A stretch of 62,832 nt of DNA, the filler included, from Stramenopiles sp. TOSAG23-6 (taxonomy: Eukaryota): the NCBI GenBank assembly GCA_900128565.1. It is 35 parts of 35 records of this genome, joined end to end, with 100 filler letters (N's around TTAATTAATTAA, not from the genome) between each part and the next. Parts side by side here need not be neighbours in the genome. Positions count along the whole stretch, not along the records: positions 28,887 to 30,586 come from LT638692.1; 34 more parts are not named here. One strand, 5' to 3'. Shown piece after piece: positions 3,519 through 57,315 of this stretch (its first letter is position 1; each line of letters begins with the position of its first letter). The notes under the pieces are model-generated. The model saw only the letters and a list, made by a program, of their open reading frames with translations. It was not told the origin of the DNA and did not search any database. A program made the translations under genes and the position numbers.

Positions 3519-3618
3519 NNNNNNNNNNNNNNNNNNNNNNNNNNNNNNNNNNNNNNNNNNNNTTAATTAATTAANNNNNNNNNNNNNNNNNNNNNNNNNN
3601 NNNNNNNNNNNNNNNNNN

Positions 3619-3753
3619 CAAGAATTCAAAAAACAGGGTATTTTCAGCGCCTTGAACCTTGCTCGATTCACCCGCAATAAACACACTTATACCTGCGTTA
3701 GCAAGGGAAGCTAACGCCATCAACAGCACACATCTCCACGTAAATGCCACCAT
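3619..3753 (-). CDS. N-terminus of a secreted protein
   Basis: MVAFTWRCVLLMALASLANA is signal-peptide-like; truncated by the contig end. Confidence 0.4.
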
Positions 3754-4120
3754 GTTCGCTCGGAGGGTCTTGCGGACGATTGTTGCAACCCTGGTCACTA
3801 TTATTCTTCCCACAGTTCAAAATTGAAACGGCGAGATAGAAAGTTTTGAAAGAAGGCAGCGTTACGTCACCAGAACCTCGGGGACTTCCACCTTGGGTGT
3901 GTTAATCAAATGCAGAAACGAAGACTAAATGCAAATAAATTCCGTATGACTGTATATAATCTTGCCTATTTGTTTTCTTAACTGTGTTTATTGAATACGG
4001 AATCGTTTCTATATTTTGGATTTATATTTACAGTATACCATGGAATAATCAAACTCACAAAAACAACTATTCACAAAATCAACAAAATATTTTATTATTA
4101 TTTTTTATTATTATTATTAG

Positions 4121-4560
4121 TAGAGAAGAATAGAGAGGGAGGACGGAGGGAGGGAGGACGGAAGAGGAAGGATGAAAGAAGAAAGAAGAAAGAAGAAAGA
4201 AAGAAGAAAGAAAGAGAAGAGGCTTTTTTTTGTTTTATATTCCTTCTTCTTACTGTACTGTATTATTATTATTTTTATTTTAAATTATAGTTTGTGATAA
4301 TAGCGCTAACTGGAGGAGTGTGTTATTGTACTTTCTAGTTTATATTTTGTATTCTACTATATCCCTACCTATCTGTACATTTACTTATAAGAATAGGGTT
4401 TTAAAACTATTATAAAGAGTAGAGAAAGAAGAAGAAGAAGAATGAGAGGTTTGTTTTCTATAAATCTCTAATAAAATATAAATATCTCATCTCCTCTCCG
4501 TCTTCCTTCTTCCTCCTTCCTTCCTTCCTTCCTTCCTTCCTTCCTCCCCTTCTTCTTCTC
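4121..4560. repeat. GA/TC-rich and TAT low-complexity microsatellites
   Basis: Runs of AAGAAAG, CTTC and TAT in intergenic DNA. Confidence 0.7.
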
Positions 4561-4866
4561 ACTTTTTCTCGTCGTTGGAATGAGCCGCCGCCGTGGTGTG
4601 TTGTTACCAAGGTAGAAGTAAAAAAATATAATAGTTCTTATTAAATTATTATTGCGAATTGATTTTCTTGTTTTAACATGTACAGAATTATTACCTCCAA
4701 ATGTAAACGAAGAGAAGTAAAGTATACGTGTGTGTGGTAAACTGTTTGTTCCTGTGGATTGGTCAAGGTTGTGGGTAACTGTTTCGTTTTTTGCCAAAGC
4801 ATTCTCTTTTAAAGAAAGAGCGAACGTTGGTGTTTCTTCGCGTGCCCCCCAGCCAGCCAGCCAGCC

Positions 4867-5326
4867 ATGAGGCCCTCCCTTTTCCTGGAGCTTGTGTTGG
4901 TGCTTGCTTTGGGTTTTCTGGGGGTTATTTACGTTCGGGCAGACGCCTCTCGAGATATTGTCCCGACGTTGTCTACCACAAACCAATACATTGTGTCATT
5001 TCACGACTATCACGACGTCGATCGCCACGAGACTATTCTTGCGGGCATACTAGGCTCTCAGAGCAACGGGGCGTGGCAGCACGTTCCAAGAAAGAACTTG
5101 GCAACCAAAGCCTTCCCCAGCGATTTTGCTTTGGTGTTTCTCGGGAGGTTGGAATCGCAGGCAAAGAAGTTGCTGGCGCACCACATCGTGAAACGGGTCT
5201 CGGCCGAACAAAAGTATTCGGGAAAACCCGCTGCCCCGCAGCACAAAAATAGACGAGCGCAGTTCGGGAGGGCCTCCCTTGGCCTGTCGTGGTCCCGTTC
5301 CGTGAGAGACGGCGCGACGGCAGGGG
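4867..5326 (+). CDS. MBTPS1: Site-1 protease (SKI-1/S1P) signal peptide and prodomain, 5' fragment
   Basis: YIVSFHDY, WQHVPRKN, FPSDFALV and HHIVKRVSAEQK match the S1P prodomain. Confidence 0.8.
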
Positions 5327-5699: not shown

Positions 5700-7047
5700 A
5701 TGGGCGGGTTTGCATCATTGTATCGTATAACATATAACATTGGTTGTGCTTTAGGTTGGGGATACATTGGTTTCCTACTCGTAAACTTATATCAAGCTGA
5801 TGGCTCATTTGCGAATGGAGATAAAGTGCATTATGCTATCTGGCCCACACTTCGCGTTGTTCAAACTGCAGCTATTCTTGAGATTTTTCATTCACTTATT
5901 GGAATGGTACGGTCTCCTATTGTTCCAGTTTTTCTACAAGTTTCATCTCGCCTGATATGTATCTGGATCACGTTATACAATTCACCAGCAGCGCAGGATC
6001 ATTGGTCTCTGGCGTTAATGGTTGGCAGCTGGTCTGTCGTGGAAGTACCTCGTTATCTTTTCTATGCAGCAAATGAAATTACCAAAGGCGGCACTGAAAA
6101 CGTGTGGTTTCCTCTTTTCTGGATAAGGTACTCCGCTTTCATCTTGTTATATCCTTCAGGGATTACTGGAGAGATGGTACAAATGTTGGTTAGTTTTCCT
6201 TATTTTATATCCGAGTTTGACAACCCAAAAAACAAGTTAATCGCTTTTATTTACCGTTTTATAGGTATTCTGTTTGTATCCTATTTTTTCCTGGGACCAT
6301 TTATGATACTTAATATGTGGAGTAATAGAAAACGTGCGTTTCAAAAACGAAATTCTTCTAACTCCACTTCAAACACTTCTCGAACTCCTGTAAAAGGCAT
6401 CGTGTGGCCGGTGACGAATAAAATTACTGGCGCTCGAAGTACGATGTATACGAATCAAGCAATATTTGCTGCTAGTTTGAAAGGCTTGGATGATTATCTT
6501 GGCGATTTAATTCTCCACGAGAAAAATTGGAGGAAAAACTACATCAAATATATGTATGTTTTATTTTTTTTTTTAAACAAAAAAATCGATTTTTTTTCGT
6601 ACGAAATTTTGTACCTAACGACTTTTTTTTGAAATATTTTTCCAAAATATATGAACGATTGTGTACGTCTTAGTCTTACCAGTGAAAGTCATGCACTACA
6701 AATTGCCAAGCAAGGCCTGGAAGCAGCCCATAAATTATTCCAATTTCAGCCTGAACATACTGCTGAAATGGAATCAGTGTCATTTGCTGAAGTCATGAAA
6801 ACTGATGCGCTTAAGAACAACCAAATATTTCTAACGGGAAATATCATTGGACAACAAGATAAACCAAAACATTTTGGGTTGGAGATTCCTTGTATGTTTT
6901 CATTGTTACTTAAAAAAGATATATTTCATAGTAAATTTTGTACCTAACGAATTTTTTTTGAGTATTCTTTCATAATACATACGAACAGGGAGCTTCAGGA
7001 AAGCCTTATAACCTATACCAAGACAAATCTCATCCATTGAGAGGAAT
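5700..7047 (+). CDS. HACD: Very-long-chain 3-hydroxyacyl-CoA dehydratase (PTPLA/PHS1) with a long C-terminal extra domain; introns 6554-6652 and 6892-6980; partial
   Basis: QTAAILEIFH, LQVSSR, EVPRY and WIRYSAFILLYPSGITGE are PTPLA motifs. The frame continues past the usual C-terminus. Confidence 0.85.
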
Positions 7048-9039: not shown

Positions 9040-9070
<31 letters not shown>

Positions 9071-9202
9071 TACGAAATTTTGTACCTAACAAAAAAAAAT
9101 ATAAAAATATTTTTTTTTTTTTCAATTTCGAATTTGTTTTTTTTGTACGAAATTTTGTACCTAACAAAAACAAATATAAAAATATATTTTTTCACAATAC
9201 AT

Positions 9203-17412: not shown

Positions 17413-17485
17413 ACAAATTTGATAGTGTTGTATAATTTATAAACAAATTTATTAGGGTTTAGGGTTAGGGTTAGGTATAATTACT

Positions 17486-18068: not shown

Positions 18069-18867
18069 AGGTATTAATGGTTAGAGCCTGTATAATTTGG
18101 TGTGTTATGCGTTCATCTTCAACTGTATTAGAGTCTAAATTATTACGTCATATAATGTTTATCATCTTACGCGAAATTGAAGCATATAATGAAAAAAGAC
18201 AAATTCGTGGATTATTGGCTTTGTCGTATATCATTAAATGTATTACACCAACTGAATTGATCTGGCATTCGCATTTACTAATTGACATTCTCCTGCGAGG
18301 AATTTCATCAAGAGATGTACGTTTTCATTATGAATTTCTGTCTACTCTATTGAAATCATTCCCATTACTTCCTACAAATAATGAAGGAAATATTATGAAA
18401 ATAGCCTTTCTAAATGGAATTTCAAAATTAGTTCATACATTAGGTATTGAAAGTATTCAGTATTTTTCAATTCTTTTTCCAATTTTATCTGAAATGGCTA
18501 CTTTGCCATTATGTATATTTGATCAAGATTGGAAGAAAAATGATTACAACAAAGAAACATCGTCTATTTTTCAAATTAGAATTTCGGCCTTGATTGCTTT
18601 TGAAACATTGATTACATCAACATGGCCTCGAATAATGAATCATTTATCGCATCAGAGAAAGATTCTTACTGTTGTTGTGTCTGCATACACATCTTCACCC
18701 AGACAATGGGTGCGTGGTNNNNNNNNNNNNNNNNNNNNNNNNNNNNNNNNNNNNNNNNNNNNNNNNNNNNNNNNNNNNNNNNNNNNNNNNNNNNNNNNNN
18801 NNNNNNNNNNNNTTTAAGTGATGCAAATTTGAATGAGTTATTAAGAAAATTGAAGAATTATAAATGA
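18069..18867 (+). CDS. TTI2: TELO2-interacting protein 2-like, C-terminal part
   Basis: HEAT-like helices with LGIESIQYFSILFPIL and LITSTWPRI. Confidence 0.6.
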
Positions 18868-19075
18868 GTGTAGATGTGCAATGTCACTTAGCTATCATAT
18901 TGGTAAATGTAGATTTTGAAAATATCAATGATATCATCTTCATTTTTTTAGTATAATTTTATATTTTGAAATATAGCTTTTAAAAGAAAAAAGAATAAAT
19001 TTTAAAAATACTAAGAGTACTTCAAAACTTTTAATAAAGGTTCAAAATAGATCATATATATATATATGTATAATA

Positions 19076-19773
19076 TCAAGCAAGGGCTTCAATATTAGCA
19101 CAATCGTTTCCAGAATATCCAGCGAAGCAGACACATTGTCCAGTTGAATAGTCACACATCCCTCGACCTGAGCAATCTCGACCTTTTGAATTTNNNNNNN
19201 NNNNNNNNNNNNNNNNNNNNNNNNNNNNNNNNNNNNNNNNNNNNNNNNNNNNNNNNNNNNNNNNNNNNNNNNNNNNNNNNNNNNNNNNNNNNNNNNNNNN
19301 NNNNNNNNNNNNNNNNNNNNNNNNNNNNNNNNNNNNNNNNNNNNNNNNNNNNNNNNNNNNNNNNNNNNNNNNNNNNNNNNNNNNNNNNNNNNNNNNNNNN
19401 NNNNNNNNNNNNNNNNNNNNCATTTACCAGTATCTCTGTCGCACTCTCCAGCATCGGAACATTCAACGTCGTCAATGTGGCTTGAAATCTTTGTTTTTAT
19501 GATACGATATGAATCTGTTACAGCTAAACGCCTTCGACCATTATCCTCAGTTTTACTCAGTCGTCGTGCTACATTCTCGCCATCGTTGTTACAATTTTCG
19601 AGTAATGTATCAGGGTCTGGTACCCAGGGAGTACATTCGTGAGTGTCGGTGTCACACGTGTGCTTGTAGCAAGTTCCAGAAGTTGAATCTGATGCAACAA
19701 CCCCTTGTGTCCAAGAAATTCCGCGAGGGCAAGTGTGCAATGAGCAATCAGCGCCAGTCAAATATACGGTTTG
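19076..19773 (-). CDS. Redundant copy of the mastigoneme EGF gene at 31215-32122
   Basis: About 18815-19750 is the reverse complement of about 31448-32385. Confidence 0.85.
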
Positions 19774-19960: not shown

Positions 19961-21577
19961 ACCTGTGGAACAGATATTTTCAGCACACGCTCTATTACAT
20001 GTATTGTGAAAAATGTAGAAATTCGAAATTGGTCAAATAATTTGTACTCTTTTACATGTTCAATTCATGATGAAAATATACATTTCAAAAAAAAAATCTT
20101 TTTTGTTTTTTAAAAGAAAATCTCACATGAAAAAAAAATAGGGTTAGGGTTTGTACACTTCATGATGAAAACATACATGAAACACAGATATTGCAATTTG
20201 AGACGCCACCTCTGAAGATGGTATTTTTTCTTGCAACAAAGATGGATCTCTAATTATATCTGACACCACAGTAGTATTAGTTGTGAGAGCAAATAATTGA
20301 GCATACATTTCCTGTCCCGCAAGTCCAGCCACTCCAAATTGGCCATCCTTCAAAGAATCTCCAATAACGCCGTCGACATGGATTATAAAAAAATATTTAA
20401 AAAAAAACTTAAATTTGTTAGGTACAAAATTTCGTATGAAAAAAAACAATTTCGAAATTAAAAAAAATGAAAACGTACATACACTACAGATGATTTTAGA
20501 TCTGGAAGTACCCATTGTGCGGCCATGGATATAATTAGCAATGAGAAAAAAACAAGCTCAGCACAACGGCGAAGAAGCCAACCTCTTCTAATGCGTTTTG
20601 TTCTAGGATCTATATTCTGGGAAAATATTTCAAAATTTTCAAAATGTTTTGTTAAGTACAAAATTTTCTATCAAAAAAAAAAATCCAAATTGAAATGAAA
20701 ACACATACATTGTAATTCATATACTAAAGTTGGAACTGCCATAAAATAATAAAGTTCAGAAATTGATAAATTTTCAGGCCATTTGACAACTTTCCTATCT
20801 TGGCAATCAATATTTAACACATTCTTTATTTTGTTCATTTGTGGTGATTTTTTTCTCGTACCGCCTCTTTCTCCGTTAGGGTTAGGGTTAGGGATTTGAA
20901 TGTCTCTAGAATAATCTGTAGGTAAGGATTCATTATTATTAGAATCATCAGGATATTCAGATCCTTCAATAATCGGAGAAAATACAGGTGAACTCCGATC
21001 ATTTTGTTGTGTCGATGCATTCGTACCAAATTTTGTTCCTGAAAAAGTACTCTTTGACATTTTTGTGCCAGATATTTGTTTAGGGTTAGGGCTTTTAACG
21101 TCAACTGTAGTAGTTTGAGTTCGAAGCTCCCAATTCACATGAGCATAGGATATTAATTTGAAAAATGAGCACATGACACACATCATCAGCAACGCACTTT
21201 TCGCAGGGTGCGGAGCTAGAACAGTTACATAGTAGCAGGGGACGCAAAGTGATCCAGCACAATTAGTAAAATTTAACAAAAAAATTATAAACTCTGGGAG
21301 GAGATGCCTAGCAGCGATACATTCAATCAGAAGAGCTAATAGTATATTTACATTTTGGCACATGAGTAAGTTTAGCATCGGCCAATATGTAAAGAATTCA
21401 ACGCTTACAATTGGAGACTGTGGAATACCTATGACAATACCATATTTTAGGAAGTTTTCAACAACAAGACGCGAGTGTGTGATACACATAATAATTGCAA
21501 TTAAATTCATCACTCCACGGAATGAATTTTCCGGGGCCGTTGAAGACAACAAAGAAGCACGAACACGATCCGACGGT
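19961..21577 (-). CDS. DGAT1: Diacylglycerol O-acyltransferase 1 (MBOAT), partial; introns 19999-20176, 20378-20478, 20610-20708
   Basis: SLLSS, RLVVENFLKYG, KLISYAHVN, PTLVYELQYPRT and ERVLKISVP. Confidence 0.92.
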
Positions 21578-26985: not shown

Positions 26986-27389
26986 NNNNNNNNNNNNNNN
27001 NNNNNNNNNNNNNNNNNNNNNNNNNNNNNTTAATTAATTAANNNNNNNNNNNNNNNNNNNNNNNNNNNNNNNNNNNNNNNNNNNNATTTATAACGCTGTC
27101 ACAGTGTTCTTCAATTACTACACAAGGGTCTTCTTCTAGTCTAAAGATAATACTTTTTTTGTTGGGCATATCTAGCATGACAGGAACTTGTAAATCATTC
27201 CTTGGCTTGCTCTTTTGCCGTCGGGCAACGGAAAGCCTTGTTGTTAGAACAATACATAGAAATACACTGAAATCGAATGGAATTATTATCATTGTACATT
27301 GTAATATAACACTCTGCGTTCCTACAGCCGTGTTTTTGGTGATGATTCTAAAAAAAAAACAGTCAGTAAACTGCTTAGAAAAAATTTAA

Positions 27390-28626
27390 TCTCATGGGGA
27401 TTTTGCAAATGCACGTAATCATCTCGACCGTTCCTTAGACATATTTTCAGGGATGCCGTCTAGTGTGGAAAGTAAATATATGGTAAATGCCGTAAAGCGA
27501 CGTATAGTTGGGGTTTGTGAAATGATAGGCGATGTAGCAGAAGGTGAAAGGTTGTTGCTTGAGATTCTTTCTTCGGAGCTCGGAAGCGAGGAAGAATATC
27601 TTATGAAACGCTGCATATCCCGCCTTTATATTCAACAAAATAGACCAAGTGAAGCTCTCAAATATCTTTCGAAAATGTCAGACGTTGAGTTAGATTCCAC
27701 TGTTGACAGGGTTAGTGCTAGAGTAGAAGATCTTATTTTACTTGGTATAGTTAATAGTATGGATTGATGAGGCAGAGAAATATTTTGATACTGCCACTAA
27801 TCTTATCAAGGACAATAAGGACAAAAATACTTTAAAAAGTTTGTTGATATTATCAAGAGTTAACCGTGGTGCAAGTCTGTGGCTAACAAATTCTGTTTGT
27901 GATAGTAACTCCAATGAAAAGATGAGTAACGAGCATCGTATAGCAATATTAGAAGAAGCGAAAAAGTGTTACGAAGATGCATGTACTTGTCTTGGTATTG
28001 AATATCCTGGTAGAGATAATATTTCTACTGATTTAGGTGGAAGTAATATTTCTACTGATTCCCGAATGGTATCTTCTTTATTAACTAGTCTAGGACATAT
28101 ATGTTACTCCATGAATTATTTAGATGAAGCAAGGTTTTATCTTGAGTCAGCATTACGTCATACATCTAATAAGAAAGAGATTGCCGAGAATAAAAAAAAT
28201 ACAGTGAATGTTTTACACGGTTATGACGATGATGTACGACTTGGCTTATTACTAACACATTTAGCTACACTTAGCCATATGGAAGAAAAAGCTGTCACGG
28301 CCGAGGGTTTATATAGAAGTGCATTGGATTATTTTGCTCGTAGTTCTTTGAATACAACAAATACAATTTCTAATTCTTCCAATACAACTGATGCCCAATT
28401 AATTCAACATCGCCAATTGTCACCAATGTTTCAATGGGCTCATGCATTCGCTCTTGATGGATATTCAAAATTATTAAACGATTGGGAAAATAGAGGTCCT
28501 GAGGGTAAGTCATACGCTGAGAAATCTGAAAGTATAATGAATCATTTACATCAAGGATCAGAAAGCCACGCGTTAATAACTCCACATGTTATGCTGAGTG
28601 GTTGGTCACCCTTTTATCAAGAGTAA
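27390..28626 (+). pseudogene. TPR-like gene with a frameshift near 27765 and an in-frame stop at 27387
   Basis: LLLGIVNSM continues as DEAEKYFDTA in another frame; TPR-like helices throughout. Confidence 0.5.
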
Positions 28627-28786: not shown

Positions 28787-28942
28787 NNNNNNNNNNNNNN
28801 NNNNNNNNNNNNNNNNNNNNNNNNNNNNNNTTAATTAATTAANNNNNNNNNNNNNNNNNNNNNNNNNNNNNNNNNNNNNNNNNNNNATTTTGTACCTAAC
28901 AAATTTAAGTTTTTTTTTTTGAAATATTTTTCCAAAATACAT

Positions 28943-30093
28943 ATGTACGAGACTCAGGAACACCTTCTTCGATTCATTTTTCAACCGACCATATATTTAG
29001 TGGGTGGAGTGATGGTCGGATTCGCTGTCATAACTCAGCCGGTGGAGATTTATTGTGGTTTATTAATGAGGCTCATGTATGTTTTATTTTTTTTCAAATT
29101 CGAATTGTTTTTTCATACGAAATTTTGTACCTAACGATATTTTTTTGAAATATTTTTCCAAAATACATAAAGTTTCTAGAAATGGCGCAGTCAGTGCCTT
29201 GAAGCTTAGCAACAACAGCAAATTTCTATTATCGGGAGGTGTATGTTTTATATGAATTTCTAATTTAATTTTTTTTTCATACGAGATTTCGTACCTAACA
29301 AATTTTAGTTTTTTTTTTTGAAATATTTTTCACAATACGTGAGAGTGGTGCTGTTAGGGTTTGGGACGTGAGAACTAAGGAACTAGTATCTCATTTGAAA
29401 GAGCACAAGTCCAAAGTATCACAAATATGTCTCTATGACGATGACGTCCACTGTTTAACATGTAGTCAAGACCGTTCATTCCTCTGTTGGGATCTTCGGG
29501 AAGAAAAGCGGATTGCAAGTCATGTTCAACGCACTGGAGGTATCAATGCGGTAGCTCTTTCCCGAGACCAAACATGTATGTTTTATTTTTTTTTTACAAA
29601 AAAATCGAATTTATTTTTCATACGAAATTTTGTACCTAACAATTTTTTTTAGATTTTTTTTGAAATATTGTTCCAAAATACACATATAGTTACTTGTGGC
29701 AAGGAAAGAATGATTACATTCTGGGATTTGAGAGATCCTACACCTGCTAAAACTATATCGCCAGCCCATGATGGTGAAGGGACATGTATAGCCATGCTCC
29801 ACAACAGTGATCATATTTTTGCTACTGGCGGAAGTGACCAAATTGTAAAACTTTGGGATGCAAGGACTGGAAAGGTTATAACGGAAGGGTATGTTTTCAT
29901 CATGAATTTCAAATTTAGTTTTTTTTTTTCATACGAAATTTTGTACCTAACGAATTTTTTTTGAAATATTTTTTTACAATACGGATTAGGGCATTCGGGG
30001 TGCATAAATGACGTACAATTTTCACCAGACGATAAGCAACTACTCTCTGTTGGGGATGATGGAAATATATTTATCTGGAACTTTTATTTGTAA
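28943..30093 (+). CDS. WD40 protein, CFAP52/WDR16-like, 3' part (four complete introns)
   Basis: SGWSDGRIR, LKEHK, ATGGSDQIVKLWD and GHSGCINDVQFSPDDKQLLSVGDDGNIFIW. Confidence 0.8.
29077..29168 (+). mobile_element. Introner copy, GT...AT (92 nt)
   Basis: GCT CAT|GTATGT...CCTAAC...AAAATACAT|AAA GTT gives EAH-KVSRNG in the WD40 gene. There is no AG after the branch point. Confidence 0.88.
29241..29340 (+). mobile_element. Introner copy, GT...GT (100 nt)
   Basis: GGA GGT|GTATGT...CAATACGT|GAG AGT restores the WD40 motif LLSGG-ESGAVRVWD. Confidence 0.88.
29889..29984 (+). mobile_element. Introner copy, GT...GG (96 nt)
   Basis: GAA GG|GTATGT...CAATACGG|A TTA GGG CAT restores EGLGHSGCINDVQFSPD. 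Confidence 0.86.
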
Positions 30094-30144
30094 TTTTGCA
30101 AAAAATAAAAAAAATTAGACTTTGGAAAAAATACAAACTTCAAC

Positions 30145-30586
30145 AAATCTTTATTGATTGTTTTCAAGTTAATTTTTTGCTTTTAAATCTTTATTGATTG
30201 TTTTCAAGTTAATTTTTTGCTTTTAAATCTTTATTGATTGTTTTCAAGTTAATTTTTTGCTTTTAAATCTTTATTGATTGTTTTCAAGTTAATTTTTTGC
30301 TTTTAAATCTTTATTGATTGTTTTCAAGTTAATTTTTTGCTTTTAAATCTTTATTGATTGTTTTCAAGTTAATTTTTTGCTTTTAAATCTTTATTGATTG
30401 TTTTCAAGTTAATTTTTTGCTTTTAAATCTTTATTGATTGTTTTCAAGTTAATTTTTTGCTTTTAAATCTTTATTGATTGTTTTCAAGTTAATTTTTTGC
30501 TTTTAAATCTTTATTGATTGTTTTCAAGTTAATTTTTTGCTTTTAAATCTTTATTGATTGTTTTCAAGTTAATTTTTTGCTTTTAA
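30145..30586. repeat. 40-bp tandem satellite AAATCTTTATTGATTGTTTTCAAGTTAATTTTTTGCTTTT, about 11 copies
   Basis: Near-perfect head-to-tail units with no spacers. Confidence 0.95.
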
Positions 30587-30686: not shown

Positions 30687-30884
30687 ATTGAGATCTCCTT
30701 GAGGAGTGTCAATAAAGGCATGGGAAAAGTGACACGAACGCTCAGAACAATCCGCACCCATAAAATTTCGATAGCATTCACACGCAGAATACGCGTTGCA
30801 TGTTCCATTACCATTACAGTCGTTTGGACACTTTGCGGAAGCAACGCCAAGGTATACAAGAAAGAGGAATAGTTGAATCTTCAT
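30687..30884 (-). CDS. Tubular mastigoneme protein (Sig1/Ocm1 family), N-terminus
   Basis: Signal peptide followed by CPNDCNGNGTC...GADCSERSCHFSHAFIDTPQGDLN. Confidence 0.8.
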
Positions 30885-31214
30885 TATGCAAAAATTAAAT
30901 CGAAGATGTAAAGATATAAACTCTTTAGAAAACGAAAAAAAGAAAATTACCGTTGGACAAAAAGATCCGTTGGATTGGGATTCGGAGATTATTTTTGGCC
31001 AATTGAAATGCGCAGTTCTGTTTTGTACCAAAATTTAGTACAATGAAGAAGGGTTGCCATCAGAATTCGTAAAAAGTCATTTTCCGTTACACGAAATTGA
31101 ATTCCAAAAATTCCAAAAAAATAAGCTCCAACGGCTAGTCAAAAGCAACGTAACCTTACTGTACACTTCACACTGGTTGAATACCCCGTTTCTTGAAAAA
31201 GAAATCTCTTCATT

Positions 31215-32122
31215 ATGTTGAAGCTCACTGTGTTTATTTTATTCTTTCTTTGTTCTGATATTGAGGCAGTTTGTCCGAATTCATGCTCGGGTCATGGTAA
31301 ATGTGATGCTCAGGATATTTGTACTTGCTTTAACGAAGGAAAGCCACTTTACTTTACAAAAGATTACGACCCAACAGCTGGAAATCAGCCTCATTATGAC
31401 AACTATGGTTCTGCAAATGTACCGATGAAAAAACGTTGGACTGGTGCTGATTGCTCATTGCACACTTGCCCTCGCGGAATTTCTTGGACACAAGGGGTTG
31501 TTGCATCAGATTCAACTTCTGGAACTTGCTACAAGCACACGTGTGACACCGACACTCACGAATGTACTCCCTGGGTACCAGACCCTGATACATTACTCGA
31601 AAATTGTAACAACGATGGCGAGAATGTAGCACGACGACTGAGTAAAACTGAGGATAATGGTCGAAGGCGTTTAGCTGTAACAGATTCATATCGTATCATA
31701 AAAACAAAGATTTCAAGCCACATTGACGACGTTGAATGTTCCGATGCTGGAGAGTGCGACAGAGATACTGGTAAATGNNNNNNNNNNNNNNNNNNNNNNN
31801 NNNNNNNNNNNNNNNNNNNNNNNNNNNNNNNNNNNNNNNNNNNNNNNNNNNNNNNNNNNNNNNNNNNNNNNNNNNNNNNNNNNNNNNNNNNNNNNNNNNN
31901 NNNNNNNNNNNNNNNNNNNNNNNNNNNNNNNNNNNNNNNNNNNNNNNNNNNNNNNNNNNNNNNNNNNNNNNNNNNNNNNNNNNNNNNNNNNNNNNNNNNN
32001 NNNNAAATTCAAAAGGTCGAGATTGCTCAGGTCGAGGGATGTGTGACTATTCAACTGGACAATGTGTCTGCTTCGCTGGATATTCTGGAAACGATTGTGC
32101 TAATATTGAAGCCCTTGCTTGA
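31215..32122 (+). CDS. Tubular mastigoneme-family EGF/tenascin-repeat protein (Sig/Ocm short paralog)
   Basis: Signal peptide, [42 protein letters not shown] and [14 protein letters not shown]. Confidence 0.8.
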
Positions 32123-32896
32123 TATTATACATATATATATATATGATCTATTTTGAACCTTTATTAAAAGTTTTGAAGTACTCTTAGTATTTTTAAAATT
32201 TATTCTTTTTTCTTTTAAAAGCTATATTTCAAAATATAAAATTATACTAAAAAAATGAAGATGATATCATTGATATTTTCAAAATCTACATTTACCAATA
32301 TGATAGCTAAGTGACATTGCACATCTACACTCATTTATAATTCTTCAATTTTCTTAATAACTCATTCAAATTTGCATCACTTAAANNNNNNNNNNNNNNN
32401 NNNNNNNNNNNNNNNNNNNNNNNNNNNNNTTAATTAATTAANNNNNNNNNNNNNNNNNNNNNNNNNNNNNNNNNNNNNNNNNNNNAGCAGCCATCTTGAG
32501 TCATTTTAATAAAGAGAGCAGCCATCTTGAGTCATTTTACAGGTATAGTTGCGGATAGTATATATATATCCACTTTCCTCTCTCTCTGCTAGTGAAATTT
32601 CCGTTCTTCAAAAAAAATTTAACGTATAAGAAACTGTCAAAATGATGATACAAACCTGTCGAAAAAATATTAATAAAGATTTTGATTTTTATTTTGTACT
32701 GAAAATTTGTACTTAAATTTTTGTCGCATTTTGTATTGAGATTTTGTCGGAGATTGAATCGCGTTGAATCGATCAATCCCCCGACAATTTGAACGTCAGG
32801 TTGATCACTAACAGTCAGCCACTCAATCGGTAATACTGTTGATTATATCTAAATAAACTAAATAAAAGACGAGAAAGTTCTAATATTTAACCAAAT

Positions 32897-34183
32897 ATGT
32901 TAAACTTCGTAAACTTCAACAGGAAATCCCCGAAACGTCCATTAGGTCCGCCCAGTTTAAATCGTNNNNNNNNNNNNNNNNNNNNNNNNNNNNNNNGGTA
33001 AAGACCCAAAGAAGTCCAGGGAAGTTGAAGGTGCGGTTGTTGCGGGTGCGGGTGGTGCGGGTCCAGCACCAGATAATGAATCCCCTTCATCTATTAGGGA
33101 TATCAATAGAGGGATCCCATTGTCTCCCGCAATTGCTAACAACGTATCATTTCGGACGGCTTCGCGGTTTGCGGAAGAAGATGTATGTTTATATTATAAA
33201 TTTCAGTTTTCATATGTCGAACACTGGTTTTGTACCTAACAAAAAAAAAGTTGAAATATTTTCTCACAATATATGAAACTAACCCTAAACGTAAATTGTT
33301 TTCACCGTTTGATGCCAACTCAGATGATTGGTCATCAATTAAAATGGATTTGGATGCATCACGCACCATTTCGACCATTTCGACGGGANNNNNNNNNNNN
33401 NNNNNNNNNNNNNNNNNNNNNNNNNNNNNNNNNNNNNNNNNNNNNNNNNNNNNNNNNNNNNNNNNNNNNNNNNNNNNNNNNNNNNNNNNNNNNNNNNNNN
33501 NNNNNNNNNNNNNNNNNNNNNNNNNNNNNNNNNNNNNNNNNNNNNNNNNNNNNNNNNNNNNNNNNNNNNNNNNNNNNNNNNNNNNNNNNNNNNNNNNNNN
33601 NNNNNNNNNNNNNNNNNNNNNNNNNNNNNNNNNATTTCGACCATTTCGGGAAAAATTGAAGACGTACGTGTTCATATTCTGGAATGTTTTTTTTTTCATA
33701 CGAAAATTTGTACCTAACGGAAAAAATGAAATATTTTTTCACAATATATGATGGTGGGGAATATTTTCACGATTATGTTATTTTTAATGGAAGAAAATAC
33801 ATTGGTGAAGGAGTGGCCGTTAATGGTGAAAAATGGGTGAGCTTGGAAAGTTTTGAGAAAATTTTTTCAAATTCTGGAATAAGNNNNNNNNNNNNNNNNN
33901 NNNNNNNNNNNNNNNNNNNNNNNNNNNNNNNNNATTTCGACCATTTCGGGAAAAATTGAAGACGTACGTGTTCATATTCTGGAATGTTTTTTTTTTCATA
34001 CGAAAATTTGTACCTAACGGAAAAAATGAAATATTTTTTCACAATATATGATGGTGGGGAATATTTTCACGATTATGTTATTTTTAATGGAAGAAAATAC
34101 ATTGGTGAAGGAGTGGCCGTTAATGGTGAAAAATGGGTGAGCTTGGAAAGTTTTGAGAAAATTTTTTCAAATTCTGGAATAAG
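32897..34183 (+). CDS. Unknown low-complexity protein (introns 33183-33274 and 33664-33749)
   Basis: Frames join across the family introns; large N gaps limit certainty. Confidence 0.4.
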
Positions 34184-36080: not shown

Positions 36081-36145
36081 TGACAATGTTGATGTCCATC
36101 GACATATATAATGAAAAAATATTTTTCATTTGAAATTGGTCAAAA

Positions 36146-36176
<31 letters not shown>

Positions 36177-36792
36177 GTTTAGGTACGAAATTTTCTATGA
36201 AAAAAAAAAAAATTAAATTTAAATTTAAATTTAAATTTAAAATTCATGATGAAACACGTACATGAGGTGATGGACATCCTACTACAGTATGAAACCATTG
36301 TAACTGCATTTTTGCCTCACATGCTGCTTCTGAAGGAACAATTTGATTTAATGTACATGCTGTTATAAAGTCTTTCTTTCCTCGAAATGTTCTCTTTATA
36401 TTTGAAGAAGTTGAACAAGTTGATTGTGTTGTATTCACCATGCCAGTCACAATATCAGTGCAATTAACTGGAGCAAGTAAAGAAGGAATTTCTTCTGGTG
36501 AGCTCAAAGGAACACCTTCAGATAAGTTAAGGTGTAAGCCAACTCTGTGTAATAAACCCTCAGACCGTGCAATTGATATAGCTTCCATTGCATATGGTGC
36601 TCCTGCCATAATCGACGTTGCTGTACAGATACCGTCTTTCATGGCCTTTATAATACCTAGGGTTCGTTCCATACTTATACCGAAATCATCAGCTGTGATG
36701 ATAACTAAAGGTTTCATCTCCGACTTATTTGTGTTCAACTGTGATACGGTTTTCATTTCTTTAGTGTCAATTGATGATCCAATAACATTCAT
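36081..36792 (-). CDS. YDJC: YdjC deacetylase, second assembly copy or allele
   Basis: Same protein as 23481-24192. Confidence 0.88.
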
Positions 36793-37206
36793 TATTGAAA
36801 CTTGACGCTTTGGTGTATACTACACGATCGAAATGTGTGACAAATTACTCTCTATACCTTTTTACTTTATTCTCTCTCTAAGTAATAGGTACAATATGCT
36901 GTCGTACACAATAGTAGTATCATTCGAGATGAAACTGGGTGTTGTGTATCACTAAGTACTACAATCACTGACGAATAGGAATTTCTTTACTAGCTACTAC
37001 TTGTTGGTAATTTACCGTAGATACAAACAGTAATAATTCTTCGTCTTTTTGAAGTTTGAACTTGTTGTTTTGAAAAATCGAAAAATGAAATGAAATCGAA
37101 AAAAAGAAAAAAAAGTAACTGTTTTACAAACTTCTTGCTGGGCACAATACTAAACTAAAGCCTATAAGTTAGTATTTAGATTATTTATTTATGTGCGAAT
37201 GAATCA

Positions 37207-37736
37207 ATGATTGAGAGTTATCAAGAGTTTAAAACTAGCCATGAGGAGGAGACACAGAAGGATTTGCTTTATTGTAACCAAGCAGATAGTGCGTCAAGAA
37301 CAAAAGTATCAACAATACAAAATATACAAAATAATTTCCCCAATGAAAAACTTGAAAAAAAATATTTCACACCTAATGAAAAAAAGCATTTTTATCCATG
37401 TTCTACCTCATCCTCATCTGAAGCCGAAGATATTCTTTCAATTGGATCATCCAATACACAGAAACAACTGAGAACTAGTACAAATGTCGCATGGCAAAAT
37501 TTTCAAAATAAAAGAAAAATAACTCGTTCTAGAGGCATCTCGACTTTTCGTGAAAGAGCAGACGTAGCAATTGGTGCAGCAACAAGTCTTCGTGATAAAG
37601 CGCGTGTAGGCGCGAAAGATTCTTTTGATGTAGCAATAGGTGCAGCAAAGTTAGGAGCAAAAGGGACTATTGGTGCTGCCCGTATGACCATCAAAACAAC
37701 ACGTGGCGCAGCTAAATTAGGTGCAAAAGGGACAAT
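37207..37736 (+). CDS. Second copy or allele of the unknown gene at 24613
   Basis: Identical protein; one synonymous ATA/ATT change in codon 2. Confidence 0.55.
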
Positions 37737-37986
37737 GTATGTTTTNTTTTTTTNCATTTTTTTNTTNGTTTTNATACNNNNNNNNNNNNNNNNNNNNNNN
37801 NNNNNNNNNNNNNNNNNNNNNTTAATTAATTAANNNNNNNNNNNNNNNNNNNNNNNNNNNNNNNNNNNNNNNNNNNNAATCTTTTGTATTAAACCAAAAA
37901 AAAAGAAAAAAAAAAAAAAAATTTTTTTCATAGATAATTTTGTACCTAACAAAAATATAAAAAAAATATATTTTTTCACAATAAAT

Positions 37987-45111: not shown

Positions 45112-46667
45112 GTCTGTGATCCACCCGTCATAGAGAAAATAGACAATATTGCTAACACTAACTCTAACCAGGGATTGTCAAGTACAAAATTTGGTATGAA
45201 AAATACACCAGCTCTATCGGATTACACTAAAGTTACTTTTATTCCAGATGTAAGTTTTATTTTTTTTTTTACAAAAAAATCGAATGTTTTTTCGTACGAA
45301 ATTTTGTACCTAAAAAATTTAAGTTTTTTTTTTGAAATATTTTTCCAAAATACATCTATCAAGATTTGGAGTAAACAAATTTCCAAATGGAATGTTAGAC
45401 TTGTTGAAAAAAAGAGTTTGGGATATTGCTGGTTGTACACCAAATATTTCTGTTTATTTGAATGGTGTTGCTGTTGGTATTCCACAAAAATCTGGTATTG
45501 GATTTAGTAATTTCGGAGAGTACGCATCACTATATGATAGAAAATTGAATTCTTCATCAAGTGAAGAAAAGAAAATTGAAAAATCTGCATCATTGGTATT
45601 TGCAAAACTCAACAAAAATTGGGAAATTGCGGTAACTGCATCTTCATCATCATCATTACCATCAAGTCATTTTTCTCATGTGAGTTTTCATGATGAATTT
45701 CAAATTTTTTTTTTCGTACGAAATTTTGTACCTAACCAATTTCGAATTTAATTTTTTTTACAATACATGTGAGTTTTGTCAATAAAATGGCATCATTACG
45801 TGGAGGTACTCATGTCACAGCAATCGCCGATCTCGTATGTAAACCAATTGCTGATGCGATTAATGTATGTTTTTTTTTTTTTTTACAAAAAAATCGAATT
45901 GTTTTTTCGTACGAAATTTCGTACCTAACGTTTTTTTTTTTGAAATATTTTTCCAAAATACATAAAAAACATACAGATTTACGAATTACTCCGGGTGCAG
46001 TTCGACAAAATTTGAAATTATTTGTAAATGCAAAAGTAGCAAATCCATCATTCGATAGTCAATCAAAAGAAATGCTTACAACAAAACTTTCAGCATTAAA
46101 TATCCCAAAACTGTCACCAAAAGTTGTATGGTTTATTTTTTCAATTTCGAACTTTTTTTTTTTTTCATTTTTTTTGTCTATTTTTTTTTCAAATTTTTGT
46201 ATAATTTTTTTCAAATTTTTTTTTCATACGAAATTTTGTACCTAACAAATTGTACAAAAAAAAATATTTTTTCACAATATATGTTTCCAATATTATCTCA
46301 AAATCGAATATTGTGGAAACAACTATTTTTGCAGCAAAATCTCGTCAGAAGGCAATGCTATACAAAAAAACAAAAGTTTCAAAAAATCGAATGTTAACCA
46401 TACCTAAATTATCCGATGCTAATCTTGCAGGGGGTCGTCGTAGTAGTGAATGTACACTGATTTTGACGGAAGGTGATTCAGCAAAAGCACGTTTTCATTT
46501 CAATGTTTTGTCAAAAAAAATTTTTTTGGTAGAAAATTTCGTACCTAACATTTTTTTTTTTTTGAAATATTTTTTCACAATACTTGCGCTTGCCGTCTCT
46601 GGTTTATCAGTCATAGGTAGGGATACGTATGGTGTATTTCCTCTAAAGGGAAAATTATTAAATGTAC
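45112..46667 (+). CDS. TOP2: DNA topoisomerase II, ATPase-transducer-TOPRIM fragment (five complete introns)
   Basis: FIPDLSRF, SFVN...GGTHV, NPSFDSQSKE, KLSDAN, TEGDSAKALA and FPLKGKLLNV. Confidence 0.95.
46487..46585 (+). mobile_element. Introner copy, GC...TT (99 nt)
   Basis: GCA AAA|GCACGT...CAATACTT|GCG CTT restores the TOP2 TOPRIM motif EGDSAK-ALAVSGL. Confidence 0.85.
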
Positions 46668-46852: not shown

Positions 46853-47830
46853 AAAGAAAATGATATTGGTGAAAATATACCATGTCTTCGACGTTATGTA
46901 TCTGTATTTTCCGCAAAGTTGCGAAGTTTTGAAGATAAAACTGAACAAAACAAATTCATATTACAAAAAATTGCCGAGAAAAGGTTTCGAAAATCTTGGG
47001 ATGATCTCTCAAAAGATGAAAAAGATGAATCTATGATATGCTACGGAAAAAAATCTTCGCCAAGTGGTATTTGCTTTATCGCGTTCAAGGATGCTAGAAA
47101 TAACACAGGTCTCAAACCTCCGGTACCCATTATTGGCGGTGTTCGCTACATGATGTTTCAATCAATGAATATGAATAAACATTCTGATATTAATTGCAAC
47201 AAGGAAACAATTGTATCACCTGCGGATCAGATGAATGCATTTGAAAAAGCAGTTGCTGAAGAAAATACGACGAACCCTTTAACTTATAACATTATCAATT
47301 CTAAATTAGATAATTTAGCTTGTCGTAATAATACTGATGATATAAGTACCAATAGTAGTCTGAATGGTGGAAATGAACAGTTACAAAATAAGACGACTAT
47401 TAAAATTTGTGCACCAGGGCTAGTTTCAACTGGAGACAAAAGAAGTTTTAGCCCAAAATCGGAAAGTTTTTTCAGTGAACTGGATAACACATACGGAAAT
47501 CGACGACCTGCACGACTGCAGCATTACAAAAAGGGTAACAATACAGTAATCTATGAAACAGATATCAATTCTTGTACTTTTCATTATCAATGGAGTGGTC
47601 TCCAAGATGGATATGAACATGAAGTTGTAAATGGAAATTTCAATGGTATTCGTGTACTAAAAGCTGGAAGAGAAATCCCAATGGAATTTATGTTACGTTC
47701 TCTGTATAATCCTGAGCTTCAACGTCAACTCTGCTGGGGGAACCATGAAAATGGAAAGAGTAGTTTCATTGAGAAATTACCTTTAACTTTAAAAGTTCAA
47801 ATTCGGATAAACAAAAAGTTGTCGACATAA
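46853..47830 (+). CDS. Unknown protein fragment
   Basis: Open frame of more than 300 codons; no motif recognised with confidence. Confidence 0.55.
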   Translation, partial: KENDIGENIPCLRRYVSVFSAKLRSFEDKTEQNKFILQKIAEKRFRKSWDDLSKDEKDESMICYGKKSSPSGICFIAFKDARNNTGLKPPVPIIGGVRYMMFQSMNMNKHSDINCNKETIVSPADQMNAFEKAVAEENTTNPLTYNIINSKLDNLACRNNTDDISTNSSLNGGNEQLQNKTTIKICAPGLVSTGDKRSFSPKSESFFSELDNTYGNRRPARLQHYKKGNNTVIYETDINSCTFHYQWSGLQDGYEHEVVNGNFNGIRVLKAGREIPMEFMLRSLYNPELQRQLCWGNHENGKSSFIEKLPLTLKVQIRINKKLST

Positions 47831-48645
47831 TTCAAGAGAATATTTCTGAATTAAACAAAAGCATTTTCGATATAAATCTATTCAAATTAGGGTTACTCAT
47901 GAATCCAAAGAAACTTGTAGAACCTTCATCTACTGCTAAAAGCACAAGACGTAAAAATACAAGACTGCAAAGTAATAAAAATCTCGAGGATCATTCAAAC
48001 GCTTCTAATACATTGCACAATATACAAGAAATGACCAGATTTGGTAATACTAAACTGAGTCAAATGAAANNNNNNNNNNNNNNNNNNNNNNNNNNNNNNN
48101 NNNNNNNNNNNNNNNNNNNNNNNNNNNNNNNNNNNNNNNNNNNNNNNNNNNNNNNNNNNNNNNNNNNNNNNNNNNNNNNNNNNNNNNNNNNNNNNNNNNN
48201 NNNNNNNNNNNNNNNNNNNNNNNNNNNNNNNNNNNNNNNNNNNNNNNNNNNNNNNNNNNNNNNNACCTGTTCCATATGTACCACCTAATGGTAAACATGT
48301 ATATGAAGGAAAAAATGAAAGATTTTTGAATTTCGGGCCACCCGGGCCAAACCAATTTCAGACAGGCGAACAATCAACACTTGTCACGAAATCGCCAGTC
48401 GAATGTTTACGAATTAAAAACAAAGCGTGTAAAGCTATCACAATTCTTATCCAAAAGAAATATACTGAGTTAGCTTTCTTGCCAGTACCATGTAGGAAAA
48501 ATGTTCATGGTAAACTGGAGAACATCATTTATTCACACATGTTCTNNNNNNNNNNNNNNNNNNNNNNNNNNNNNNNNNNNNNNNNNNNNTTAATTAATTA
48601 ANNNNNNNNNNNNNNNNNNNNNNNNNNNNNNNNNNNNNNNNNNNN

Positions 48646-55797: not shown

Positions 55798-57315
55798 TCG
55801 AACCACTTCGACAGGCCTTTCAGGGGAGTAATGCATCTAAGCTTCCAGTGGCGTTTAAGGTAGTTGGTATGGGAAAAGATGTAGTAGAACGTGAGAAGCA
55901 ATTTCAAACAGCTGCAAATTCTATCAAAACTTCGGGTGAGGGAAAACGCGTCGCAGTTTTAACTAAGGAACTAAAGTACCTTACTATTGGTACTCATGCG
56001 ACAGAATGGATGGATTCTCTCTCAAAGCTAGATGGTGTTGAGCAGGTAAATGCTAGTGGTGGATTCGCTTTAATGTTTTGTCAAAAAGATTCGACAGAAT
56101 TAAGTTGCATAAAAAAAGCCGCCTTCATTACTGGCCGGTTAATGAAGTTTGCTCTTGTACCAGAAATGGAAACTGTTGTTGATGAAGGTAAAAAAGTTAC
56201 ACATGAGGCTCTTGCTGAAAAAACAGAAGCTCTACTTCAAAACCCTGAAAAAATTCGCGCTAAATACGACGTCGACGATGTTGAAGCTACAGTTCAACCT
56301 ATCATTCAAAGTGGTGGTCGATACAGTGTCAAAGCTTCCGCTCAAAGCTCTGAAGAAACAATGAAATATGACATCATTCTTGCTACATTAGGAGTTCGCT
56401 ACAATAATTATTGTGCTTCACAAACTCGCACATATTTTATTGATCCGACAAAAGAACAAAAAAGTGTATATTCGATTATTTTAGAGACATATCAATCCTG
56501 TCTTGGGGCTCTTCAACCTGGCAAACCTCTAAGTGCTGTACGTGATGCAGCGTTGAATACATTAAAAAACTCTTCCCGTCCTGATTTAGCTAATTATTTA
56601 AGTAAGACGTGTACGTTTCAATTATATTGTTCAAATGTATTTGTTTATCAAAAAAAATGCAAATTATAGTGACATATCTAACAATTTTTCATTTTTTTAA
56701 ATTTTCTTTTACATTATATGTGGACATTCTATGGGTCTTGAAATGCGAGAATCAATATCATTGAACAGTAAAAATCATTTACAGGCTCGTTCAGGTATGG
56801 CTTTTGATTTGCGTCTTTCCTTAGAAAATATTCCACACGAGAGTAAAACAAGTGACGATGGTGCACGTTCTTTATCTTCGTATACAATTCTAATCGCTGA
56901 TACAATCATTCTTGAGGATAGTATTAATGATAAGACGGGAACATTTGCTATCCCTGTATCAAAAGCATCAAAATTATGGAAAAGTGTAGCTTATTTTCTA
57001 GATGGTGAAGATGATGATGATAGTGAAGACGAATCTGCAAAATCAAAACCTGAGAAAGGAAAATCAAAAATGGTCAATGGTGCAATACCTTCTATCTCAT
57101 CCGTGCGTGCGAGAACACGTGGTCAGGAATACGCAAATAGCGCGTCTGCATTAGCAAATAAAGCGGAAGCAAATAAAAGAGATGAAAGACAACAAGCCAT
57201 CATGCGCGCAAAAATGGAAGCAGCAAATAAAAAACGAGATGAAGCATTTGTCGATACAAAGTTTAAAGATGGTGCTGCCCGTGCTTTTACTCAAAAAATC
57301 AAAGCATATGATAAT
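55798..57315 (+). CDS. SPT16: FACT complex subunit Spt16, partial (intron 56611-56719)
   Basis: PIIQSGGRY, LGVRYNNYC, RTYFIDPT, MGLEMRE and IADT. Confidence 0.9.

Follow-up and report, generated by a model that had tools for sequence, protein, structure and literature searches.

The window examined here is a stretch of 62,832 nucleotides from Stramenopiles sp. TOSAG23-6 (assembly GCA_900128565.1) in which part of a gene for a WD40 protein is interrupted by four short inserts belonging to a repeated element family. It consists of 35 contigs of 1,683-1,710 bases in order of descending length, joined by N44-TTAATTAATTAA-N44 linkers (e.g. 28787-28886). A profile made from 28 full element copies was searched over the 58,498 non-N bases (nhmmer, E < 1e-3) and detected 75 copies of about 90-125 nt spread over most of the 35 contigs. 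The preliminary description of this DNA had proposed a window-wide system of introns that need no 3' AG. The wide spread of the family stood, but "window-wide" refers here to some 35 unlinked places sampled from one assembly and not to a single locus. The WD40 gene lies in the contig at 28887-30586 (LT638692.1). Besides the WD40 protein the host genes of the copies included topoisomerase II (a contig at 45059-46752 with seven copies), NSF and an SLC12-like transporter, and SPT16 carried a diverged copy. Coordinates of the features discussed are collected in Table 1.

All four inserts in the WD40 gene began with GTATGT and contained GTACCTAAC, the branch-like motif that had been described as common to them. 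They lay where they had been placed before, with the ends AT (29168), GT (29340), AC (29683) and GG (29984) recovered both in the sequence and with RNA contigs, except for an ambiguity in the exact borders of 3 nt in intron 1 and of 2 nt in each of introns 2 and 4, which arises because the terminal nucleotides of these introns repeat the upstream flank. The border of intron 1 slides by -1 to -3 nt without a change in the product, which makes an AT..AC reading possible, and those of introns 2 and 4 each slide by 2 nt to the equivalent introns 29239-29338 (GT..AC) and 29887-29982 (GG..AC). Intron 3 is unable to slide because its upstream flank AT differs from its terminal AC, and these fixed borders therefore give the rule that the insert is cut before GTATGT and 2 nt after ATAC.

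Table 1. Exons, introns and element copies discussed in the text, by position in the window
Feature	Positions	Strand	Basis
Copy whose "+2" dinucleotide is AG by chance (...AGAATAT+AG), one of three	20610..20708	-	profile/frame test
3' part of element copy, cut by contig start, end ...AAAATAC+AT at 28942	28887..28942	+	nhmmer, profile positions 51-102; sequence
WD40 exon (partial gene; phase-0 end ...GAG GCT CAT)	28943..29076	+	sequence; X1 DNA contigs records 1-4
Intron 1, element copy, 92 nt, GTATGT...ATAC+AT	29077..29168	+	nhmmer 6.6e-17; X4 record 11 resumes at 29166
WD40 exon, 72 nt	29169..29240	+	X4 record 11 positions 49-121
Intron 2, element copy, 100 nt, GTATGT...ATAC+GT	29241..29340	+	X4 record 11; X8 record 23
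WD40 exon, 235 nt	29341..29575	+	Pfam WD40 29.9 bits (cut-off 27); RNA contigs
Intron 3, element copy, 108 nt, GTATGT...ATAC+AC, borders unambiguous	29576..29683	+	joint 29575->29684 in X4, X6, X8
WD40 exon, 205 nt	29684..29888	+	Pfam WD40 27.2 bits; RNA contigs
Intron 4, element copy, 96 nt, GTATGT...ATAC+GG	29889..29984	+	frame test; X4 record 11 lengths; X4 record 14 ends at 29983
Last WD40 exon, stop TAA 30091-30093	29985..30093	+	Pfam WD40 37.2 bits, repeat entered at profile position 9; sequence
Topoisomerase II intron, GTATGG...ATAT+AT, 157 nt	46126..46282	+	exons abut at yeast Top2 386|387
Topoisomerase II intron, GCACGT...ATAC+TT, 99 nt	46487..46585	+	exons abut ...EGDSAK|ALAVSG, human TOP2A 466|467, yeast 454|455
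SPT16 intron, diverged copy missed by profile (GTACGT...ATATCTAAC...ATTAT+AT), 109 nt	56611..56719	+	homologue alignment

Removal of the inserts from RNA was assessed over 28887-30130 using contigs from seawater polyA metatranscriptomes and DNA metagenomes that carry the WD40 gene. These were the polyA RNA runs X4 and X6 (from the same study) and X8 (from another study) and the DNA run X1, the best DNA holder of the gene. X4 record 11, a contig of 591 nt, matched 29166-29238, 29339-29575 and 29684-29886 at consecutive record positions with zero letters between the blocks. Its outer letters (the first 48 and the last 30) were undisplayed, and their lengths fit exon 1 from 29026 to 29073 and exon 5 from 29983 to 30012 (48 + 73 + 237 + 203 + 30 = 591). 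The fitted ends adjoin variant sites, 29026 lying just after 29025 and 30012 just before 30013. In X8 record 23 the 16 loose letters ahead of 29339 matched the last letters of the exon upstream. The joint 29575->29684, which skips 108 nt with the ends GT..AC, was present in X4, X6 and X8 ("both" = 0, shorter side 203-204 nt), that is in three RNA runs from two studies, and occurred in 0 contigs of the DNA run X1. The RNA contigs bypassed the AGs located 4, 3 and 6 nt downstream of inserts 1-3 as well as the TTTTAG inside inserts 2 and 3. Transcripts of this gene thus lacked the inserts and were joined at the borders first proposed and not at AG.

DNA contigs from X1 contained the same inserts joined to the exons. 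Records 4, 6, 7 and 8 bridged exon 1/insert 1, insert 2/exon 3, insert 3/exon 4/insert 4 and insert 4/exon 5, at a depth of 3-7 that was like that of exon-only contigs, and 0 X1 contigs had the joined form. Loss of the inserts from part of the DNA, raised in the preliminary description as a way in which its proposal could fail, was therefore not seen in this run. These joins bear on the possibility that the elements are eliminated at the DNA level in transcribed nuclei, in the manner of an internal eliminated sequence (IES), with RNA copied from insert-free DNA. Loss of an element together with one flanking repeat is also typical of precise transposon or IES excision, but we consider this explanation very improbable, as the inserts, unlike the IESs of ciliates, are joined to exons in bulk DNA (in the assembly and in X1), some insert-exon contigs were present in the RNA runs as well (X4 record 13), and neither the long frames in standard code nor the diatom-like best matches described below suggest a ciliate.

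The spliced contigs could also have come from strains that never received the inserts, since metatranscriptomes sample mixed natural populations and the RNA contigs differed from the window at 1-2 sites. X1 record 6 (29313-29500), which bears the 3' part of insert 2, had two letters other than the window, and the variants 29382G and 29427T were common to X1 and to the spliced contigs of X6 and X8. Because this insert-bearing contig has two variants where the spliced contigs vary, the spliced RNA does not appear to derive from an intron-less allele. No insert-free DNA contig was present in X1, all 4 of 4 inserts would have to be absent jointly, and the in-frame removal of 26 of 27 decidable copies reported below implies that copies are tolerated within the reading frames of many genes in the assembly. 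Presence/absence polymorphism is accordingly a most unlikely source of the spliced contigs. The DNA contains the inserts and polyA RNA lacks them precisely; the 3' border lies 2 nt past a conserved box and is other than AG, and AGs close by go unused.

The remaining copies were evaluated by their 3' ends and reading frames. Ends were set from the alignment and the profile coordinates, with copy 57726 shifted by hand and 54887 probably off by 1-2 nt. Among 53 visible 3' ends there were 44 AT, 2 AG, 2 GT and one each of AC, GG, TC, TT and TG, and a further AG end at 9579, in a long tail outside the profile match, was read by eye. This agrees with the earlier count of only three AG ends (9579, 20610 and 54109) and a majority of AT. 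For the frame test, 37 near-full copies were excised from the first G to 2 nt past ATAC and scored for whether the dominant reading frames on both sides join. The longest-frame version was chosen; 60-nt flanks were non-discriminating, with several frames open. Frames could be decided for 27 of the 37 copies and 26 of these were in frame (p = 7e-12 versus 1/3), and a previous form of the test, applied to 30 copies, had given 20 of 22. An in-frame AG between -50 and +11 was available in only 9 of the 27 decidable copies, and in one of the 9 it was the +2 site itself.

Homologues confirmed three further junctions, two in topoisomerase II and one in SPT16. Topoisomerase II exons were translated separately and matched to solved-structure numbering. 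The intron at 46487-46585 is a second unambiguous non-AG case (GC..TT), because its flank AA differs from its terminal TT, and a shift of the cut by -2 would swap out a conserved lysine (human K466). Two more Top2 junctions fit within 1-5 residues and lie in variable loops. In SPT16 the intron interrupts the codon that corresponds to C354 of a 64%-identical homologue (T|GT), and zero residues are lost or gained.

U12-type introns are marked by the donor /RTATCCTT and by a branch site, TCCTTAAC, that lies 10-20 nt ahead of the 3' end. Splicing of ordinary GT-AG introns or of U12-type AT-AC introns whose borders had been misplaced would be compatible with part of the data, as introns 1-3 allow an in-frame GT...AG after a shift of 3-6 nt and most copies are, through their AT flank, formally AT...AC. 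However, the RNA contigs resumed at 29166, 29339 and 29684 and not after the AGs at 29172, 29343 and 29689, intron 4 had no frame-keeping AG from -50 to +11, and both intron 3 (GT..AC) and the topoisomerase II intron (GC..TT) are unambiguous. The U12 donor, which had been reported absent, was found once in the window versus 4.4 expected and away from any copy, and the branch-like box of the copies lies far from the 3' end (32-52 nt). Mis-drawn borders are thus a highly unlikely explanation.

Copies of the family shared the general form GTAYGTTTT..., a core TTTCGTACGAAATTTTGTACCTAAC, a T-run and ...AAATAC plus 2 nt. GTACCTAAC occurred exactly 56 times in the window compared to 0.14 expected from shuffles, and the 25-nt core TTTCATACGAAATTTTGTACCTAAC occurred 52 times at <=3 mismatches versus 0 expected. 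At the 5' end +1 was G in 48/49 copies, +2 T in 45/49, +3 A in 46/49, +4 T or C in 47/49 and +5 G in 48/49, followed by T at +6 to +9 (+6 in 49/49). The 5' hexamers were GTATGT (19), GTACGT (9), GCACGT (2), single cases of GTAAGT, GTGAGT, GTGTGT, GTCTGT and GGACGT, and others; GTAAGT, GTGAGT and GCACGT among them are classical donor variants. The 5' GT is therefore shared with U2-type GT-AG introns apart from GC and GG exceptions, whereas the terminal AG is not. CTAAC was present in 39 of the 39 copies examined, with its adenosine 32-52 nt (median 37) from the 3' end. The 3' block TTTTT(C/T)C A(A/C)AATA(C/T) was conserved and followed by A (46/52) and T (46/52), and the next exon base was G in 33/52. 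Upstream exons ended mostly in AT (-2 A in 35/49, -1 T in 42/49). The element ends GTAT(G)TTTT and AAAATAC form an inverted repeat of about 4-9 nt, and upstream flank and terminal dinucleotide were the same in 23 of 36 copies, AT/AT in most of them. Relative to the flanking reading frames 40 of the 75 copies were sense, 1 was antisense and 34 were undecidable.

Several further features of the elements were seen. The 25-nt core (e.g. 29111-29135) contains a perfect 12-nt palindrome, TTTCGTACGAAA (e.g. 6595-6606), just ahead of TTTTGTACCTAAC. This core is the most conserved part of the element, far exceeding the needs of a branch site, and may be a putative binding site for a transposase or a splicing factor. 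Exact scans of a metagenome contig collection with the 25-nt and a 20-nt core gave no match, a result that says nothing on distribution. The summed contig depth of element bins was about 10,000x that of unique exons in the DNA run X1 and only about 10-70x in the polyA RNA runs; this ratio, no copy number in itself, hints at thousands of element copies in the genome. Tandem or nested copies, in which one core directly follows another or one copy holds another within its tail, were located at 9062-9201, 58626-58763 and 58222-58401, which suggests insertion into existing copies or local duplication. The copies at 46487, 54885 and 41936 begin with a dinucleotide other than GT (GCACGT twice and GGACGT once), all three in open reading frames. 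Short telomere-like CCCTAA/CCTAAC repeats adjoin element-like sequence at about 17440-17480 (minus strand) and at 33270-33290.

The inserts are best read as one high-copy family of short, non-autonomous, transposon-like elements of the type of introners or miniature inverted-repeat transposable elements (MITEs). We consider it likely that this introner-type family is removed by a U2-type spliceosome that makes the 3' cut 2 nt past a terminal box rather than at AG. Copies sit in sense orientation inside protein-coding exons, each bringing a 5' splice site of the yeast-like form GTAYGT, a CTAAC box that resembles a branch site and lies within the 25-nt core, a U-run and the 3' box ...C(A/C)AAATAC, and the pre-mRNA would lose each copy from the first G to exactly 2 nt beyond ATAC. 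These last 2 nt are AT in about 8 of 10 copies and otherwise GT, GG, AC, TT, TC or AG. They often repeat the 2 nt preceding the element, as in a 2-bp target-site duplication, and removal of the element together with these 2 nt would restore an uninterrupted coding sequence. In the logic of introners, the message would be unchanged only if the element leaves with one copy of its target duplication, and a transposon-like origin of the family is the likely reason for the look of the insert ends.

A U2-type spliceosome, using the 5' site and the putative branch box CTAAC of the element itself, would make the cuts; we infer this from the near-invariant GT, the classical donor variants, the U-run, the sense-only orientation and the absence of a supporting structure. 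The terminal box, read by a bound protein or RNA, would act as a 2-nt ruler for the 3' cut in place of AG. In most copies -2 is still A and -3 still a pyrimidine (CAT versus the usual CAG), so that the commonest departure from the norm is the last base only, and ends in CGT, CGG, CAC, CTT and CTC are tolerated too. The preliminary description had offered three ways in which the 3' site might be defined. Definition by AATAY plus 2 nt is supported by the RNA contigs, the frame test, Top2 and SPT16. Definition by structure is unsupported because there was no consensus fold (RNAalifold 0.0, no pairs) and the 5' end paired with the 3' end in 13 of 28 single minimum-free-energy folds, and definition by distance is unsupported because the distance from CTAAC to the end varies over 32-52 nt.

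Excision of the RNA independently of the spliceosome, in which a structure- or sequence-guided endonuclease and a ligase remove the element with one copy of the flanking dinucleotide, would also account for an unneeded AG and for nearby AGs being ignored. The ends are short inverted repeats (GTAT...ATAC), relative to which the two cuts are staggered by 2 nt, and the palindromic core is conserved far beyond what a branch site needs. Against this stands the folding result just given, to which can be added that C at +4 (16/49) was without compensation at -6 (A in 48/52). A symmetric hairpin should act in both orientations, yet 40 of the 41 decidable copies were sense, and the 5' variants are exactly the classical donor variants, with a U-run ahead of the 3' box. 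We regard such excision as unlikely, though less so than the DNA-level explanations considered earlier.

Several points weigh against removal by a spliceosome that does not read AG. Direct RNA support comes from the WD40 gene only and from assembled contigs rather than raw reads, and the junction letters of introns 1 and 4 were undisplayed, both junctions following from record lengths. The conservation of GTAYGT and CTAAC could reflect young related copies or the needs of a transposase. In 13 of 39 copies the stretch from CTAAC to the 3' end includes an AG that goes unused, and the TTTTAG located 10-13 nt after the A of CTAAC in introns 2 and 3 is odd for a search that runs from the branch to the first AG. 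Copy 61662 was out of frame (1/27), two long open upstream frames making its frame call doubtful. A 2-bp target duplication is weakly supported, as the matching non-AT pairs number only 2 (GT/GT and GG/GG) and at least 8 pairs differ; mismatching pairs of flank and end always keep AT at the intron end. The lineage is known from best matches only. Lastly, the window samples the short-contig tail of the assembly and is biased to repeat-broken contigs. The assembly broke at the element repeat, as 17 of the 70 contig ends fall within a copy, and the density here of 1.3 copies per kb therefore overstates the density across the genome.

The host was assessed by protein matches. Among the 120 best longer matches of the NSF fragment, 8 rows named an organism, at 35-41% identity, and 8 of 8 were diatoms, a diatom-bearing dinoflagellate or a xanthophyte, in keeping with the stramenopile-like label given at the outset. 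The SPT16 fragment matched one EukProt protein at 64% identity and all others at <=39%. Judged by these matches the host, an uncultured-type marine protist, has its affinities with stramenopiles, is no tunicate and is without a close relative among named organisms. Under the standard code long reading frames are open, which argues against a ciliate-type code. A protein atlas look-up returned bacterial M24 peptidase clusters only and was useless for taxonomy. An Rfam scan of the window gave 0 matches, with no small nuclear RNA in the window.

The primary paper on the non-canonical introns of Fritillaria borealis is reportedly that of Henriet et al. 2019. In this larvacean tunicate and its relatives the non-canonical introns derive from MITEs, have species-specific positions and take their 3' end from a duplicated target triplet; they are removed by a U2-type spliceosome, and the main classes start with AG (Soo et al. 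2026, PMC13326754; PMC11282704). The share of introns with a 3' AT is 34% in F. borealis and 44% in F. pellucida, AT and AC outnumber AG, a YAY triplet forms the last three bases and often also precedes the 5' site, and the uridine tract is kept (PMC13326754). U2AF is duplicated and divergent there, and the m6A pattern of the snRNAs is reported as changed. The family described here resembles these introns in its transposon-like copies, the excess of 3' AT and AC over AG, the uridine tract and a 3' end that may come from a duplicated target, with a last triplet of YAY in 43 of 53 copies and an upstream exon triplet of YAY in 20 of 52. It differs in having a canonical yeast-like GTAYGT 5' end and not AG, a duplicated stretch that looks to be 2 nt and not 3, a single dominant family, and a host of another kingdom-level lineage, a protist with diatom-like best matches rather than an animal.

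More than 60% of introns in Amoebophrya A25/A120 are described as non-GT-AG, with repeated introner families whose inverted and short direct repeats overlap the borders; the elements have inverted repeats of 8-20 nt predicted as hairpins, direct repeats of 3-5 nt and no common terminal dinucleotides at either end (PMC7789003). Their removal independently of the spliceosome has been raised as an open question. Like these, the present copies occur in a marine protist as intron families with ambiguous exact borders due to end repeats, but they have a near-invariant 5' GT, an inverted repeat of only about 4-9 nt and no consensus fold. The nonconventional introns of euglenids are likewise reported with non-GT-AG borders, junction repeats like target-site duplications and a suspected MITE origin; they have no pyrimidine tract, depend on a stable helix between their ends in which +4 to +6 pair with -8 to -6, and are released as circles (PMC11282704). 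Spliceosome-independent excision has been proposed for them. Border dinucleotides and junction repeats are similar to these in the present family, whereas the U-run, the GT and CTAAC signals and the absence of a supported helix set it apart from euglenid introns.

Introners of Micromonas pusilla and Aureococcus anophagefferens are portrayed as short, non-autonomous and DNA-transposon-like elements that bring one splice site along, and the canonical algal introners use GT-AG splice sites, the second of which arises within the target duplication (PMC11282704; PMC12130899). The present copies are, like them, short transposon-like elements spliced from genes, and Aureococcus is itself a stramenopile. 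The stramenopile introners described so far (Aureococcus and a Parmales species) are reported to have canonical sites, and the curation of the introner survey took only AG or AC 3' sites (PMC12130899), a filter under which a GT-AT family would have gone unnoticed or been removed. Full-text literature, with subscription papers and supplements outside its scope, yielded no report of non-AG introner-type introns in a stramenopile; of two papers on genomes of uncultured marine stramenopiles, one uses "splice" 0 times and "intron" twice, in a methods context (PMC5778133), and the other uses "intron" 0 times (PMC8163842). We regard the present case as one of transposon-derived non-canonical introns in a new lineage, distinctive in its canonical 5' and branch-like signals together with a free 3' dinucleotide.

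The GT-AG rule is among the most constant features of eukaryotic genes, and to our knowledge it is broken on a large scale only in a few lineages, namely Fritillaria, Amoebophrya and euglenids. AG-blind splicing in this organism would add an independent case from a different supergroup, and a cleaner one, in which the 5' site and the branch-like box are canonical and only the 3' rule has changed. This isolates the question of how a 3' splice site gets chosen without AG. Such splicing would imply a re-tooled 3'-site recognition involving U2AF, Prp8, Slu7 or Prp18, or a new factor, and the altered spliceosome suggested in the preliminary description is a plausible hypothesis. It is possible, and we propose it only tentatively, that nearly all introns of this free-living marine protist are of the transposon-derived class and that the machinery no longer reads AG, using a 2-nt ruler that arose independently of tunicates and Amoebophrya. 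If true, AG-blind splicing would have evolved separately from both with textbook 5' and branch signals kept. The family would also be a direct example of a mobile element that carries all it needs for harmless removal from mRNA. With acceptors restricted to AG or AC, gene finders and introner surveys would overlook or wrongly annotate most of the genes in organisms of this kind, a practical concern when genomes of uncultured marine protists are assembled from single cells or metagenomes.

Conventional introns outside the family were sought with a heuristic search for adjacent open reading frames without a copy between them. It gave 46 candidates, mostly spurious, and the two that were read (27330-27830 and 47700-47900) showed no clear intron, a result that gives no basis for or against ordinary GT-AG introns here. 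Long same-strand frames switch frame at 27730-27770 and 47790-47830 with neither an intron nor an element in view, which may reflect frameshifts in the assembly or true ends of genes. Redundancy was evident in the contig pairs 23481-25183 versus 36081-37777 and 18069-19773 versus 30687-32385, one pair being 97% identical over its full length and another 99-100% identical in reverse orientation, and one element copy plus its flanks was duplicated within a single contig (33664-33748 versus 33964-34048). The redundant contigs look like haplotypes or assembly redundancy. Two contigs at 1811-5326 stood out by a G+C content of 42%, compared to 24-40% elsewhere, and by a scarcity or absence of element copies; they may come from another genomic compartment or from another organism in the assembly. 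About 50 nt past the WD40 stop a tandem array of 11.1 perfect copies of a 40-nt unit (100% matches) occupies 30145-30586 and runs to the contig end.

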